Assembly (NCBI GenBank): GCA_046757025.1
Contig: JBHHXN010000038.1
Span: 1-36,168, forward strand
Reading direction: 5' to 3'
Length of the DNA: 36,168 bases
Source: a bacterium
GTDB lineage: Bacteria > Zhuqueibacterota > Zhuqueibacteria > Oceanimicrobiales > Oceanimicrobiaceae
In this document: positions 1,255 through 7,855 of the stretch, one piece after another
How the letters are laid out: each line of letters begins with the position of its first letter
How positions within the stretch are numbered: position 1 is the stretch's first letter
Program-made: the position numbers and the translations under genes
The notes under the pieces: generated by a model
Databases searched by the model: none
Told to the model about the DNA's origin: nothing
Seen by the model: only the letters and a program-made list of their open reading frames with translations

Positions 1255-2043
1255 TTAACTGCCGACTGTAAATTCCATGTTGGCTTCCGCAGCCGCACCG
1301 GCGGTCACGGTGACTTCCATGGATTTTTTCCCCAACGATTCCTGCCAGAATTCGACGGAATAGGTGCCCGCAGGCACATCTATTAATTCAAAATTACCTT
1401 CGGAATCGGTTACGACATAATAAGGATGATCAACCACGCAAACATACGCACCCATCCAGTTATGCACATCGCAGGTTACGCGGATGAATTCCGCCTGGTC
1501 GAATGTTTGTTTCATTTCTTTATTAAATCCCGGTTGGGCTACGTTGACTGGTGAATTGAGCTCGCTGTAAGTGTGAATGTTGTGCAAAATACCGTCGCTG
1601 TTTTTGATGGTTAATTCAGCGCCGGTGGGAATCAATACCACGTGCGGTTTGAACGCGCAGCCATTCTGATCGATGGCAAACGTCGTGCCCAGAGAGGACA
1701 GATCTTTACCGGCGCTGATATTGGAGATACTAACTACGACGTTGGCCAGACCGTTTGAGCTGGAAACGACGAGGTCTTCTTTGTAATGCGGTTCTTTGCT
1801 GCAAACCGCCACATCTTTGGTCACTTCTAATTTTTGTTTTGGCGGCACCGCGCCGGAAAAAGTCACTCTTCCAGTGATGGAGCCGCCATCGGTGACCGCT
1901 ACCGCTTTGTAAGCTCCGGTTTCGGCTGCGGATTCGGTTTTTGGAGCCGTTTGTTTAGTTTGATCGGTCTCTCCCCCGCCTCCGCATGAAAATGCCAAGG
2001 CCGCTATCAACTGCGCTAATGCTATGGTAATTATTTTTTTCAT
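1255..2043 (-). CDS. Lipoprotein with cupredoxin-like core and carboxypeptidase-regulatory-like beta-sandwich
   Basis: Lipobox LAFS-C. Motifs DQNGCAFKPH, LHNIH and CDVHNWM supply a His/Cys/His/Met set resembling a type-1 Cu site. The C-terminal TDSEGNFELIDVPAGTY is CarboxypepD_reg-like. RBS GAGGAGG precedes the start. Confidence 0.75.
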   Translation of the reverse strand: MKKIITIALAQLIAALAFSCGGGGETDQTKQTAPKTESAAETGAYKAVAVTDGGSITGRVTFSGAVPPKQKLEVTKDVAVCSKEPHYKEDLVVSSSNGLANVVVSISNISAGKDLSSLGTTFAIDQNGCAFKPHVVLIPTGAELTIKNSDGILHNIHTYSELNSPVNVAQPGFNKEMKQTFDQAEFIRVTCDVHNWMGAYVCVVDHPYYVVTDSEGNFELIDVPAGTYSVEFWQESLGKKSMEVTVTAGAAAEANMEFTVGS

Positions 2044-2089
2044 GGATTCCTCCTCAAAAAAGATTTTGTTATGAAATGTCGAATAAGCA

Positions 2090-4723
2090 TTAATTTTTTA
2101 CAAATCTGTGTATGTTCATGAGATAATCGGTTAAGGCTTCAATTTGTTTCTCCGGATTGCCTTCAAAAATATTCGGCGGTGCCGCATCCGGATAGAATCC
2201 CGGCATTTTGGTACCAGGCTGCTGTGCTTGCGGATTGGCAATCCAATCAAATACCCAGTCTGGATTCAGCCGGTCAGGCGCCAATAGAAAATCCGGCGCC
2301 CACCCAGCCGGCGGCCCTTCGGGTTTTTTCTTGCCAACTTGGTGACAACTGTAGCAGCTCAAATAGTCGGTTGAAAACAGCGTTTCGGCGGCTTTTATTT
2401 CTTCGCTGGTCAAATCCACATCGATTTCCATGAACGCCTCGCTCATCCCTTCTAATGCCTGAAAATACTCGATGAGCTGGTTGACTTCTTCGTCACTGAG
2501 GTCAAAAGACGGCATGCGGATATTCAGCCATGGCCGAATGTTGATGGTGGGGTTTTTCAGAAATCCGAATAGCCAGTCCGGTTGCACTTTGCGTCCCTCG
2601 CCGATGAGATCGGGCGGAGCAAAGGAGATGGCTTCTTCAGGAGCACGCCCTTCGACTTTGAAGGATTCAGCAAGGATTGACCGGATGAATCCACCCTGAC
2701 CTTCAATGATATGACAGCCGATACAATTATATTGTCTAACCAATCGGCGGCCTTTTTCGATGGCGTCGCCCAATCGCCCCATATCGTGAAGATACTCTTT
2801 ACCGATGACCCGGCCATCCCAGCTTTTCAGGATCAAAGTCATGGTATTGGCTTCTTCCTCTGAAAAGGCGAAGTTCGGCATGCGTTGCGCCACGGCTTCG
2901 GTTTCATACATGCGGGAATTGAGCATCTTGCCTTTGGTCCAGGCGTACCAGGTTTCTTCAGGTACTCGGCCATCTGCCAGGGCGTCACCGAAAAAGAGTT
3001 CTTCAGGAGTTTTGGCGCCAAATTCATTCAACGCGACACTCACCTTGCCTTCTTTTTCCATGCCCGGAATATCATGACAACCGTGGCATCCAAAATTTCG
3101 AATAATGGCCTGGCCTTCTGCAACGAGCTCTTTGGAGTTCAAATCCACAGTCTGCAATTGGTTTTCCGCAAGACTCGAGTCGGTATTGGACATGAGGTAG
3201 GCTACGATATCCCGGGCTTCGGTGTCGTTCAGTCGAAGATTGGGCATAGTCGTGTTGGGGTTGTACTGTTTCGGATTTTTTATCCAGGCATAAAGCCAAT
3301 CTCGATTAACTTTACTGCCAATTTTTGTCAATTCGGGGGCGATGTCATAACTGACGTCGGTTCTATTTACCTGCCGGTCTTGTTCAGTTATCACATGACA
3401 GCCTTTGCAACCCACGCTTTCAACCAGTTTTTCTCCCCGACTGGCCGAACCACCTGCCGGCACTTTTGCCGGTTTGTACTCATGGTTTTTACTTACACTG
3501 TATAAGTACGCTGTGACAGCCGCTGCTTCATCGTGGGAATATTGCGGGTTAGGCATGCGGCTATGTTGTCTAAACGATTTAGTATCTTTCACCCACTGAT
3601 AAATAAAATTGGGGGTGGTTTTTGAAAGAATTTTACTCAATGGCGGACCAATTTTACGAGCCTTTTCATAACCCGCTATTTCATGGCAGCCAAAACAACC
3701 CAGGTCGAAAACCATGCGCTTCGCACGGGACAAATTGGGCGCGTGGTCCAAAGACAACTCTTTGTTGTGACATTTGTTGCAGCCGGCTTCCACGAGTTCA
3801 TTTTTTAAAAGCGGGTGTTCCCAGTGTTTGTCATAGCCATGAGCGTGAAATTCCTGCAGAGCGGGGCCCTGACCTTCATGGCAGGAGGAGCAGGCAAATT
3901 TATTGACGGGATGGGTCTTAAAAAACCATTCCCGATCGGGATGCGATTGAAAAGGTGCAGGATAGTCTTCGTATCCTCTTTTGTCGGCGTTTACGTGGCA
4001 GCTGGTACAGCGGTCAACTTTATCCAGAAAACTCTCAAAATTACCACGTACAAAATTAGGCAGCACCACCTGTTTAATAGAAATTTTTCTGTGATCGATC
4101 AGTGTTAATTTTTCTTGGTGATCTTTGACGGGTTCTACCAGGGCTTCGTATTCTTTTTGCAAGCTATCCACTGCCGACCGATAGCGCAGCAAGCGGGCTT
4201 CTAATTCTTCTTTCTGAACTTCGGCTTCATCCCATTTTATTTTCAAACTGGCCACTTCTGAAATCAATGCATCCACTTTTTTACGGAGCTTCTGGGCTTT
4301 GGAATCCTGGCCGGCGTGTTCAGCATGTTTATATTCATACCAAAGAGCGTCGTATTCGCTTTTTGCGAAACGATAAGCCTGCATCGCTTTATCGATTTCC
4401 ACGTCGGCTTGATGCAGATCGGCTTGCAAATCTTCGTAAGCCTGGCCCTGGAGATGGGCTTTGGCTTGCTGGAGCTGTTCCGTTAATTGCGCCAAATGGT
4501 CCGCGTATTGCAAGTTCAACTCTTCTCGTACCTCAGCTAATTTTTGAGCTACGTTTTGGTATTCAATTTCGTTGAATTTTTTTTGATGTCGTTGCCAGGG
4601 TGCTCTAAAACTGATCATGTCTAAAATGGCCCAGAAAGTCGTTAGAGCTAACAACCCTGCGAGAATTAAATAATACACACTGTATTCTCTTTCTTCGATT
4701 GGCGTTTCTGAACGTTTGGGCAA
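2090..4723 (-). CDS. Membrane-anchored octaheme cytochrome c
   Basis: Eight CxxCH motifs (CTSCH, CSSCH, CNKCH, CFGCH, CKGCH, CHGCH, CIGCH, CYSCH), an N-terminal TM helix and a long coiled coil. TTG start with AGGAGG RBS. Confidence 0.92.
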   Translation of the reverse strand: MPKRSETPIEEREYSVYYLILAGLLALTTFWAILDMISFRAPWQRHQKKFNEIEYQNVAQKLAEVREELNLQYADHLAQLTEQLQQAKAHLQGQAYEDLQADLHQADVEIDKAMQAYRFAKSEYDALWYEYKHAEHAGQDSKAQKLRKKVDALISEVASLKIKWDEAEVQKEELEARLLRYRSAVDSLQKEYEALVEPVKDHQEKLTLIDHRKISIKQVVLPNFVRGNFESFLDKVDRCTSCHVNADKRGYEDYPAPFQSHPDREWFFKTHPVNKFACSSCHEGQGPALQEFHAHGYDKHWEHPLLKNELVEAGCNKCHNKELSLDHAPNLSRAKRMVFDLGCFGCHEIAGYEKARKIGPPLSKILSKTTPNFIYQWVKDTKSFRQHSRMPNPQYSHDEAAAVTAYLYSVSKNHEYKPAKVPAGGSASRGEKLVESVGCKGCHVITEQDRQVNRTDVSYDIAPELTKIGSKVNRDWLYAWIKNPKQYNPNTTMPNLRLNDTEARDIVAYLMSNTDSSLAENQLQTVDLNSKELVAEGQAIIRNFGCHGCHDIPGMEKEGKVSVALNEFGAKTPEELFFGDALADGRVPEETWYAWTKGKMLNSRMYETEAVAQRMPNFAFSEEEANTMTLILKSWDGRVIGKEYLHDMGRLGDAIEKGRRLVRQYNCIGCHIIEGQGGFIRSILAESFKVEGRAPEEAISFAPPDLIGEGRKVQPDWLFGFLKNPTINIRPWLNIRMPSFDLSDEEVNQLIEYFQALEGMSEAFMEIDVDLTSEEIKAAETLFSTDYLSCYSCHQVGKKKPEGPPAGWAPDFLLAPDRLNPDWVFDWIANPQAQQPGTKMPGFYPDAAPPNIFEGNPEKQIEALTDYLMNIHRFVKN

Positions 4724-4784
4724 GGATGCCTCCTTTACGATTTAATTAACGAAAAAAATAGATCCACATTAATTAAATTGATTG

Positions 4785-5663
4785 TCAGATATTGAACCAC
4801 GGTGTTACCCATACATATTTGATATTGAGTGTCCATCTTAATATCATTTTAATGGGGAGTCCCATCATGGTTAAAAATAAAAAGGCCAGGATGGCGTATC
4901 GAACGCCACCCAGAGTTTTGATGAAATCGGAATTTTTCTTCCAAAAATAATAGATCAAGCCCAGTGAGTAGTAGAGGAAAACGACGAATCCGCCGAAGAA
5001 AAACGCACCCACGGGACTGCGAATGCCAAATTTTTCATGCAGATCGACGTTGGTCATGGCCACGACTTTATGCACATCCCATCTTTCCCAGGGCATAAAG
5101 AAATTCCAACCCGGTCCTCGCATAAAGGTACCCACTAGAATCAGCGAAATCCATAAAATAAAAAATCCGAATAAAAAGGTACCGATGGCAAATTTTCGCT
5201 CCTGCCAAGTGTAATAGCCGTTTCCCTTTGGATTTTTGTCGATGTACGGAATGGCCATGAGTCCGATGATGATGAGAGTGGGAAAGATGACGCCAGCGAT
5301 CCAGGGATCAAAATACACCAGCATTTCTTGCAGCCCGAGAAAGTACCAGGGCGCTTTGGAAGGATTCGGTGTGCGCGTAGGATTTGCCGGTTCCTCTAAG
5401 GGAGCGTTGATGACAATGGACCAGACGGTCAAAATAACCATGATCAGGATGGCCGCCAAGAATTCGTTGCGAGTAAGATAGGGCCAGGTGAAAATCCGAT
5501 CCTTACCTTCTTCCTGCAACTGGCTGTATTTACCCGCTGCGATCAAGCGATCATTTTTAGCGGCCTCTCGCATGGACAACCAGGTATAATAACCGATGAG
5601 AAAAATCATGGCAATGATGGGAATGTTGTCAGCTTTGGATAAGATGGCTAAAAATTGTTCCAT
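4785..5663 (-). CDS. Cytochrome b6f subunit IV-like / cytochrome b C-terminal protein (PetD/QcrC-like)
   Basis: APLEEPANPTRTPNPSKAPWYFLGLQE aligns to the PetD ANP...PEWYF region, followed by LMAIPYIDKNP. Several TM helices; lies directly downstream of cytochrome b6. Confidence 0.85.
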   Translation of the reverse strand: MEQFLAILSKADNIPIIAMIFLIGYYTWLSMREAAKNDRLIAAGKYSQLQEEGKDRIFTWPYLTRNEFLAAILIMVILTVWSIVINAPLEEPANPTRTPNPSKAPWYFLGLQEMLVYFDPWIAGVIFPTLIIIGLMAIPYIDKNPKGNGYYTWQERKFAIGTFLFGFFILWISLILVGTFMRGPGWNFFMPWERWDVHKVVAMTNVDLHEKFGIRSPVGAFFFGGFVVFLYYSLGLIYYFWKKNSDFIKTLGGVRYAILAFLFLTMMGLPIKMILRWTLNIKYVWVTPWFNI

Positions 5664-5725
5664 AGTTCTCCTGTCATTCGATTGGTAGAATTAAAACTCT
5701 GTGTGAAAATGTCAATTAAAAATCA

Positions 5726-5805
5726 GAATGACCCGTGGAAAAAATAGTCTTTCCCGTACTTGTTTCGGGATTCAGGCTAAAGCGTATTTTTTCAACTGGT
5801 CATTC
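5726..5805. repeat. 80-bp palindromic element (21-bp inverted repeat, 2 mismatches) in the petB-petD spacer
   Basis: GAATGACCCGTGGAAAAAATA (5726-5746) pairs with TATTTTTTCAACTGGTCATTC (5785-5805). Confidence 0.7.
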
Positions 5806-5951
5806 ATACTACTAATCATGATGCGTGAAAAGAACGCTTCGAACTTTTTGAGAATATTAAAATGAACCACCGGCTTGTTTTATGATAATTATTTGAAAAT
5901 TTCAACTAAAACAGCCGGCTCAGTTTGGTTTTTATCTTAAAAAATCTACGA

Positions 5952-6725
5952 TTAGAGTGGTCCGGAAATGCCGCCGTCTTTACGCACACGCCAGAAATGC
6001 ACAGCAATGAATACTGCCAAAAACAACGGGAAGAAGATACAATGCAGCACGTAAAATCGCAGCAGCGTCGGTGGTCCGACCTGGGTTCCACCCAGCAGCA
6101 CAAATCGCACATCGTTGTCGGGCCGCATTCCGAGCTCGGGCCCAAAAGGCCCTTCGTGACCGAGGAGGGGCGTGGCGCGCGCCATATTGGTTCCAACTGT
6201 CACCGCCCATATCGAAAGTTGATCCCAGGGCAGGAGATAGCCTGTAAAACTCAACAGCAAGGTCACGGTGAGCAAAATGACGCCCACAACCCAGTTGAAT
6301 TCTCGAGGGGGTTTGTAGGAACCGGTTAGAAATACTCTGAACATGTGCAGCCACACGGTAATGACCATACCGTGAGCAGCCCACCGATGCATGTTGCGTA
6401 AAAACATGCCAAACGGGACATCAAACTGCAAATATTTCATGTCGTTAAAAGCGTACTCTGCTGTGGGCCGGTAGTAAAACATCAGGAGAACGCCGGTAAC
6501 GGCTGTTACCAAAAAAAGCAAAAAAGTAATCCCCCCCATGCACCAGGTAAATCGAATGTAACCGGCGTGCCGGGGAATGCGAGTGGGATGGAGATGCAGC
6601 CAGACATTGTCCAGAACCTGAAGATAACGATTTCTGGGGCTGTCTTCATACCCGTGCCGAAACATGGATTTCCAGACCTGAGATTTGAGTAAACCGTCTT
6701 TCATTTTATTGAAAAAAGCTTGCAT
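5952..6725 (-). CDS. petB: Cytochrome b6 (split cytochrome b N-terminal subunit)
   Basis: FTWCMGG carries the heme-ci Cys position. Heme-ligand His pairs are [16 protein letters not shown] and [17 protein letters not shown]. Also [11 protein letters not shown] and [10 protein letters not shown]; ends GGISGPL as b6 proteins do. Confidence 0.93.
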
Positions 6726-6977: not shown

Positions 6978-7016
6978 TTGCTTTTTTTGATTTTAAGGAA
7001 TACATTGTGGTATAAA
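6978..7016 (+). promoter_or_regulatory. Sigma70-type promoter(s) upstream of the candidate ncRNA
   Basis: TTGCTT-17-TACATT (6978-7006), with an overlapping TTGATT-18-TATAAA carrying an extended TGn (6987-7016). Confidence 0.55.
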
Positions 7017-7250
7017 AATCCTGGTACGTTGGGAATTCAACCAGGGGAATTCCGGACGGTAAAGTGGTACCCTGCTGAAAGGAGGTGATCCTATATCTAG
7101 CATAGAAATAGGAGCCTCCGAAAAGCTTTGTTAATCCAGTTGCTTTACGAGTAATCAAATCCAATTAGAGTTAACTAGGATAATTTCAGGGTTTTCGGAG
7201 CTCTTGCAAGCCGTAAAAGCCTTACTTCAACTGAAGTGAGGCTTTTGTAT
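7013..7250 (+). ncRNA. Candidate structured small RNA or leader RNA of unknown family
   Basis: Bounded by a promoter and a strong terminator, with no plus-strand ATG ORF. Nested helices: CGTTGGGAATTC/GAATTCCGGACG, GTAAAGT/GCTTTAC, GGAGGT/GCCTCC, TCCTAT/ATAGGA and AAAATCCTG/CAGGGTTTT. Confidence 0.55.
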
Positions 7251-7354: not shown

Positions 7355-7855
7355 ATGTTGAATGAAACCGTTGAAAAAGCCATTAATGAACAGATCAAGA
7401 ACGAATTTTATTCAGCTTATTTGTATCTTTCCATGTCTGCATATTGTGAAAGAATAAATCTTGGTGGTTTTGCAAATTGGATGCGCTTACAATATGAAGA
7501 AGAAACCGCGCACGCGCTGCGTTTGTTCGATTTTCTCAACGACCGCGAAGGCAACGTGAAATTGCTAACTATCCAGCAGCCGCCTTCGGAATTTAGCTCC
7601 CCCTTGGAAATTTTCCAGGAAGTCCTGGCCCATGAAAAAAAAGTCACCGCTATGATACATGAATTATACGCGCTTTCCGTTAAGGAAAATGATTATCCCA
7701 CGCAGGTGGAAATGCAATGGTTCATCACCGAGCAAGTCGAGGAAGAGAAAAGTGCCAGCGAAATTGTTGAACAATTAAAAATGGTAGGCGATGATAACAC
7801 GGCTTTGCTCATGCTGGATCGGCAATTGGCGGCCAGAACTGCAGAGGTGGAATAA
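7355..7855 (+). CDS. ftnA: Non-heme ferritin
   Basis: Ferroxidase-centre motifs NEFYSAYLY, EEETAHA, HEKKVT and QWFITEQVEEE; 166 aa; AAGGAGG RBS. Confidence 0.95.
   Translation: MLNETVEKAINEQIKNEFYSAYLYLSMSAYCERINLGGFANWMRLQYEEETAHALRLFDFLNDREGNVKLLTIQQPPSEFSSPLEIFQEVLAHEKKVTAMIHELYALSVKENDYPTQVEMQWFITEQVEEEKSASEIVEQLKMVGDDNTALLMLDRQLAARTAEVE

Follow-up and report, generated by a model that had tools for sequence, protein, structure and literature searches.

We find that the predicted RNA of about 235 nt encoded at positions ~7013-7250 of the window (the whole 36,168-nt stretch of DNA analysed here) is very probably an rre-type RNA. The reading that we favour, with fair confidence, is that of a small mRNA that would dock on the 30S subunit through an extended Shine-Dalgarno (SD) sequence and be weakly translated from an AUA codon; what counts would then be the RNA and its translation as such, not the peptide. 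Small mRNAs with an extended SD have been described as rreB in Bradyrhizobiaceae and rreR in Rhodobacterales (Hahn et al., RNA Biol 14:1353, PMC5711450, cited here and below as far as its available part goes). With 15 nt of complementarity to the 16S tail of its family the window element falls short of the at least 16 nt that served as the search criterion for the rre genes, and it also stays below the cut-off of the Rfam family CC2171; it is therefore filed as an rre-type variant and not as a member. The original prediction had proposed an undescribed non-coding RNA. No Rfam family reaches its gathering threshold in the window, and around the locus there are chance-level matches only, which agrees with that proposal; however, the kind of RNA has been described before (rreB/rreR, CC2171), and an open reading frame is present. 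The element comprises the following features, all on the plus strand:

6978..7006, +, predicted sigma70-type promoter (-35 TTGCTT, 17 nt, -10 TACATT)
~7013-7250, +, the element, a stand-alone small gene for the ~235-nt predicted RNA
7018..7025, +, 5' leader with a predicted long-range 5'-3' helix, pairing with 7174-7181 (8-bp duplex, -10.1 kcal/mol)
7027..7058, +, hairpin P1, stem 1 of an H-type pseudoknot (7027-7038 pairs with 7047-7058)
7042..7074, +, pseudoknot stem 2 (loop CAGGG 7042-7046 with CCCTG 7070-7074)
7077-7091, +, extended SD GAAAGGAGGTGATCC, complementary over 15 nt to the 16S 3' tail
7081..7119, +, hairpin P2, caging SD and start codon (anti-SD GCCTCC at 7114-7119)
7093..7134, +, 13-codon micro-ORF, ATA start, TAA stop, translated ISSIEIGASEKLC, with Met first if initiated
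7112..7203, +, long helix P3, whose outer stem pairs the anti-SD strand with 7192-7203; family-specific extension
7214..7250, +, intrinsic terminator hairpin (7214-7247, fold z -6.6) and U-rich tail

The extended Shine-Dalgarno sequence and the micro-ORF

The sequence GAAAGGAGGTGATCC is present as a sole copy in the 5.96-Mb assembly, while its 11-mer core occurs 11 times. It is a perfect 15-nt complement of the 16S tail in three same-family genomes (3/21 with an assembled 16S 3' end), which serve as the reference, the source assembly itself missing its 16S 3' end; against these tails, the exact complement of the original prediction is confirmed. Among the 124 members compared, the complement is 7-17 nt long with a mode of 14 and usually 13-15, and it reaches 16-17 nt in just 11. 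Other long SD-like sites with no ATG, GTG or TTG at normal spacing were seen on five further contigs of the assembly (C3, C29, C68, C92 and C134). Contig C73 carries two such sites on its minus strand near 335 and 284, at a distance of 51 nt, of which the second has a 16-codon frame opening with ATT, and contig C165 (minus strand, near 1891) has one with an ATT 70-codon frame.

The element had been described as having no start codon, only an ATA opening a 13-codon frame. The frame is as described, but its ATA sits at normal spacing behind the SD and at a conserved start position. Metagenomes were searched with a pattern of pseudoknot and SD alone that left the start codon unconstrained and gave at least 121 loci, at least 114 of them distinct hits. 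Among the matches listed, a start-type codon stands 7 nt after GGAGG in 72/72 model-confirmed and in 0/42 unconfirmed hits. Although only ATH members had gone into the confirming model, 25 members with ATG, GTG or TTG were recovered by it among these matches. The 72 listed homologues use ATC (33), TTG (13), ATT (12), ATG (9), GTG (3) and ATA (2), so that ATH accounts for 47. The pattern applied to GTDB genomes had fixed ATH, which makes this test impossible on the GTDB hits. Two of the 42 unconfirmed listed hits resemble diverged members in which ATT is displaced outwards by 1-2 nt and opens a 14-codon frame. Three loci (L351, L363 and L381) are diverged pseudoknot-plus-SD elements of this appearance, again with ATT 1-2 nt out and 14-codon frames, and have a weak model score or none. 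Sixteen further members were found by the model only. Every one of them shows a start-type codon. Its spacing is 7 in 12 of the 16 and 6 or 8 nt in the other four, where the ATH codon shifts along and the frame is kept. The SD core is weakened in five of the 16.

The frame itself is similarly constrained. The span of the P2 hairpin is a multiple of 3 in 123/124 members, indels coming in threes; the spacer between pseudoknot and SD takes all lengths from 4 to 9. A stop is found at codon 13-15 in 122/124 members (full range 12-16 codons), whereas the stops of the other frames scatter, and TAA, TAG and TGA swap across members. Comparison of the homologous sequences thus shows start, frame and stop to be under selection. 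A GTG-started frame inside the SD was dropped because of the scattered stops of the other frames, and a selenocysteine-containing reading through the TGA at 7076 because this TGA is not conserved. The infC gene of the source genome apparently begins with ATT, which makes AUH initiation plausible in this organism, and the 13-codon frame is likely read from its AUA as judged from these comparisons. At the level of conservation, a micro-ORF that explains the SD is present, which speaks against a non-coding RNA; the original prediction itself had named a translated, conserved micro-ORF of this kind as a finding that would remove the novelty.

If the frame is read, the 13-residue peptide could be the product, with the structure merely keeping its synthesis low. 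We consider this unlikely. In 38 independent close pairs, 48/72 single-base codon changes are non-synonymous and 24/72 synonymous, against an expected synonymous share of 0.24 (P=0.046, with no correction for transitions). The anti-SD forces the near-invariant Gly-Ala-Ser, and the length varies from 12 to 16 codons. On the other side, the synonymous excess is there, if slight, and codons 2, 3 and 5 often specify Ser, by TCN as well as by AGY; these two observations leave room for selection at the peptide level. The RreB and RreR peptides, too, are conserved within their own clades (PMC5711450). The peptide sequence appears mostly to drift, the synonymous share being only slightly above neutral.

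Still less probable is an untranslated decoy for the 30S subunit, in which the frame would be a by-product of the structure. The very long SD and the weak start codons would suit a decoy, and an rreB mutant with the start codon changed to a stop was still found in the ribosome fraction (PMC5711450). However, a pure decoy needs neither start-type codons at the site (the only kind in the 72 listed homologues), nor indels in threes, nor interchangeable stops. The 30S-binding decoy of the original prediction is retained in part: the RNA is predicted to be built for 30S binding, while the conserved start, frame and stop speak against its untranslated reading.

RNA structure, gene context and distribution

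The 5' domain and the SD hairpin are supported by covariation. P1 has two-sided changes at 12/13 pairs with 87.6% of cells paired in 64 sequences, and at 10/12 pairs in 18 sequences. Pseudoknot stem 2 is paired in 97.2% of cells, with a single covarying pair of 5 and 4 compensatory cells. P2 is the SD hairpin of the original prediction (the GGAGGT/GCCTCC arm) and is paired in 99.1% of cells with two-sided changes at 2 pairs in the 64 sequences, its anti-SD being part of the search pattern. Together, P1, pseudoknot and P2 are paired in 93.9% of cells with two-sided changes in 15/30 pairs, the 64 alignment rows having been chosen by a pattern that contains P2 and including kin that are not independent. 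None of 500 shuffles reached this covariation score, and slid controls drop to 42-54% paired. One member with insertions (L015/L072) was excluded from alignments A1 and A3, and L019 from the alignments altogether. In L015 (1354-1641, minus strand), GC-rich palindromes are inserted at two places, in the connecting strand of the pseudoknot and before the terminator; its SD, frame and P3 are intact.

Not all helices drawn earlier survived this comparison. From the two competing 5' helices, GGAATTC/GAATTCC is retained as part of a 12-bp covarying stem, while CCTGGT/ACCAGG is paired in 55% of cells. Along with the latter, the closing helix GTAAAGT/GCTTTAC (58% of cells, jointly with CCTGGT/ACCAGG within the shuffle range) and the ~180-nt closing stem AAAATCCTG/CAGGGTTTT (50%, within shuffles) had to be given up as conserved features.

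P3 covaries beyond shuffles as well. In 18 sequences it is paired in 93.2% of cells, with two-sided changes in 7/23 pairs equalled by 0/500 shuffles, and it folds with a z of -3.9. Since its outer stem uses the anti-SD strand, it excludes the lower stem of P2. Folding models, which omitted the 5' domain, have pseudoknots outside their scope and dropped 8/124 members for a long ORF or a missing terminator call, pair the anti-SD with the SD at nascent length in 116/116 members. At full length the anti-SD is paired mainly downstream in 64/116 and with the SD in 46/116. For the window copy at full length, the model without pseudoknots favours the caged fold (0.73 vs 0.21). In the apical loop of the P3 extension, AATCA at 7149-7153 is kept across family homologues despite variable flanks; a protein or RNA contact is possible.

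The 5' end may pair with the 3' part of the RNA. Its CCT[A/G] motif and the 3' TAGG motif are both present in 14/18 and both missing in 4/18 family-type members, kin among these not being independent. In short members the stop codon lies in the P3 loop and is often complementary to the 5' leader. Pairing of leader and P3 loop scores -3.8 kcal/mol within own and -2.9 kcal/mol across members (0/2000 permutations, 123 members); it is weak or missing in many members, including most of the window's family and the OM182 type. The leader of the window's family is complementary to 7174-7181 instead.

The locus is a conserved stand-alone gene and is likely transcribed, from a start predicted near 7012-7014. 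TTGAC stands at the -35 place in most of the family members compared, and a promoter-like match lies upstream in 54/123 members, compared to 1/119 and 2/119 in two controls. A promoter/terminator scanner called neither element, the promoter being below its threshold. A terminator-like hairpin is found in 116/124 members, and the whole element folds with a z of -5.6, more stable than 200/200 shuffles. These predicted elements and the covariation support a discrete, structured RNA bounded by a promoter and a strong terminator, as originally proposed. In one genome (G050), a terminator-like hairpin is present in three copies (L020, L022 and L023) within 340 bp, which matched the terminator of the query only.

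The element is flanked by a divergent cytochrome b gene and by ferritin, which lies at 7355, about 100 nt past the terminator as noted before. The divergent cluster (1255-6725, minus strand) comprises a split cytochrome b, a subunit IV-like protein, a multi-domain cytochrome c of 877 aa and a protein of 262 aa; its near-consensus promoter lies at 6810-6782. Ferritin is found directly downstream and on the same strand in 9/17 family loci. Together with the two alternative folds, this might suggest that the element is a leader that attenuates ferritin (ftnA) by read-through, the switch-like attenuator of the original prediction. We regard this as very improbable. Ferritin is further downstream in one of the other family loci, upstream in one and not nearby in the rest. 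Among the non-family loci scanned (64/116 flanking ORFs) none has ferritin, and the genes downstream are unrelated and often convergent. Moreover, P3 and terminator do not overlap, and no antiterminator was found on inspection. Ferritin in part of the family and variable neighbours elsewhere fit a stand-alone gene with family-level synteny.

The element is widely but patchily distributed, and its absence from draft genomes is no proof of loss. BLAST finds single copies in 15/20 family genomes. A hairpin pattern matched 31/167 genomes of the phylum (control pattern 0) and 74 loci among GTDB species genomes, with hit titles from KSB1, Calditrichota, Ignavibacteria/Bacteroidota, Fibrobacterota and OM182 gammaproteobacteria, the labels of the submitters being inconsistent. 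From 78 distinct pattern hits, 63 pass a pseudoknot filter, 2 are members by eye and 13 are chance-like. A covariance model built from 64 members detects one copy each in 38/151 KSB1-phylum genomes and in 27/81 genomes of the class to which a Calditrichota record belongs. In the gammaproteobacterial class a pattern matched 6/401 genomes (3 member-like, 1 diverged, 2 chance). Conservation in relatives, which had been proposed as a check, is thus borne out in the KSB1 phylum, Calditrichota and other phyla. On viral contigs the strict pattern gave 0 matches, and of 122 loci matching a loose pattern just 3 had weak model scores (13-15 bits); plasmids gave no match to the one homologue used as query. 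Two viral contigs (L414 and L418) show an extended SD followed by TTG or GTG and then TCT, with 13- or 11-codon frames. A locus from another family of the KSB1 phylum (L019, 1444-1648) has an extended SD, ATT and a 14-codon frame with no pseudoknot or anti-SD; it is possibly a simpler rre-like gene and is missed by the covariance model.

The source assembly has no match to the ribosome hibernation factor HPF, for which the RNA might be a stand-in. The chance of this appears slight: all 37 other carriers of the phylum have HPF, and the gap may lie in the assembly, which is 94.8% complete. HPF is matched in 157/167 phylum genomes, and the source assembly is the sole HPF-less genome among 105 that are at least 90% complete; the absence is likely an assembly gap. 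The size of ~200 nt, the seven GGA and the 15-nt 16S complement might point to a divergent 6S RNA, to a sponge for CsrA or to a stray fragment of 16S rRNA. These readings can practically be dismissed, as no 6S, Csr or rRNA family is among the Rfam matches listed. The locus has no RF00013 match, and the true 6S RNA of the genome lies above cut-off on another contig (C5:74896-75086). The seven GGA triplets noted before are present, but they are at chance level (shuffle mean 4.7, 111/1000 shuffles reaching 7), and most lie in stems of the fold that is supported, so that a CsrB/Rsm sponge was rejected.

Relation to rre genes, CC2171 and other systems

The closest described relative in design is rreB, a 165-nt RNA with a 17-nt SD, a GTG start and 14 codons that is 30S-bound and weakly translated. 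Turning its start codon into a stop lengthens the half-life from 10 to 37 min, so that its decay is start-codon-dependent. Overexpression had no growth effect according to the available part of the paper, and the authors argue against simple ribosome sequestration. As far as that part goes, rre genes were described in Alphaproteobacteria only, in 2016, with no function assigned (PMC5711450). The window element resembles rreB as a stand-alone promoter-terminator unit of similar size with an extended SD and variable neighbours, in which SD and a weak start codon are predicted to lie in a hairpin ahead of a short ORF; promoter and terminator are predicted elements only. As in the rre genes, the extended SD runs up to the start of a small ORF (14-18 codons there, 13 in the window). 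The suboptimal start of the rre genes is GTG; the window start is suboptimal, but GTG is found in only 3/72 of the listed homologues, against 47 with ATH, 13 with TTG and 9 with ATG. In contrast to rreB, where 8 nt precede the 17-nt complement, a pseudoknot domain of ~60 nt precedes the SD, the starts are mostly ATT, ATC or ATA, and the complement is usually 13-15 nt. The window type also differs in the second conserved partner of the anti-SD (P3), in the 5' end that can pair near the stop, and in occurring in other phyla.

CC2171 (RF01867) corresponds to Caulobacter CCNA_R0051, which is listed as the translated CCNA_03965 in supplementary file 4 of PMC4117421, and was confirmed by Northern in Methylorubrum (bioRxiv 2022.01.24.477521), both as far as the available parts of these sources go. 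The window locus is the best CC2171 match of its genome, at 25.1 bits (E 0.006), where gathering would require 75. Of 20 homologues compared with Rfam, 11 show a CC2171 match below threshold that begins at the SD, with homologue scores reaching 31-35 bits. The CC2171 consensus shares the extended SD at its beginning, followed by a start codon and a TCN codon, and finishes with a terminator; however, there is no alignment over the middle part of the model, and the CC2171-type members compared have no 5' pseudoknot. In 151 sampled proteobacterial genomes, 16/24 CC2171 matches show the same SD and GTG/ATG-TCN at equal spacing, with 14-25 codons; these 16 ORF loci have a short leader and no pseudoknot. 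The covariance model R1 found 0/18 alphaproteobacterial CC2171-like loci. Most of the score, itself well under the cut-off, comes from the SD, so that common ancestry does not follow from it. Three pseudoknot-bearing members (L307, L379 and L380) open with ATG-TCT as CC2171 does and are possible bridges between the two forms.

In S. aureus, AUA and AUU starts with an extended SD support ~10-30% of AUG translation at infC, cvfC1 and ccpN, according to the available part of PMC13009471. The low yield from such a start, aided by an extended SD, is a likeness to the window ORF; those are, however, ordinary protein genes, whereas here 13 codons lie in a dedicated structured RNA. For the pseudoknotted form, the AUH starts, the switch and the range outside Alphaproteobacteria, we found no description in print, most subscription literature being outside the search and the supplements of Hahn et al. 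possibly bearing on the range. The available parts of PMC11701678 and PMC10117765 added nothing on function.

In the mRNA-like domain of tmRNA, a short ORF is closely preceded by a pseudoknot and has its stop codon in a hairpin loop. The upstream pseudoknot and, in short members, the stop codon in a loop are shared with the element, which differs by having no tRNA-like domain and by a real SD and start. The window contains no tRNA or tmRNA, and the tmRNA of the genome lies elsewhere.

A possible mechanism and its implications

Joining these features, we can outline a mechanism for the rre-type mRNA, from caging to translation-triggered turnover, which in its full form is tentative and somewhat short of an even chance. 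During transcription, P2 would cage the SD. Once made, the 3' strand of P3 would compete for the anti-SD and could free the SD, so that the 30S subunit might bind by a duplex of up to 15 bp, the pseudoknot lying close upstream. IF3 would discriminate against the AUH start, as at infC, and the over-long duplex together with the AUH codon would hold most complexes from elongating. A ribosome that does initiate would read 13 codons, open P3 and the 5'-3' pairing and terminate, after which the RNA may be committed to decay, by analogy with rreB. The net result would be a self-resetting RNA that parks 30S subunits and whose level tracks the initiation state of the cell. We infer docking of the pseudoknot on the platform and the link to IF3 from general knowledge and, by analogy, from the available part of PMC13009471. 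Lineages with ATG, GTG and TTG exist, and gating by IF3 can therefore not be universal.

The rre design recurs in at least five lineages beyond Alphaproteobacteria, here combined with a pseudoknot that covaries, an SD cage of two states and six start codons naturally used at one homologous site. These precise, mutable features offer a way to distinguish a ribosome sensor from a peptide gene. The orphan Rfam family CC2171 is tied to the rre design, and a model is supplied for a family with no Rfam entry. It is conceivable, if rather doubtful, that rreB, rreR, CC2171 and the pseudoknotted form belong together in a single old class of RNAs that are directed at the ribosome and extend across phyla, in which the pseudoknot would dock on the 30S platform, the duplex would read the whole 16S 3' tail and AUH would make release dependent on IF3. 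If this were true, the RNA would serve specifically as a checkpoint or gauge of 30S subunits that are mature and competent for initiation, and a housekeeping RNA class would have been overlooked because it resembles a tiny gene.
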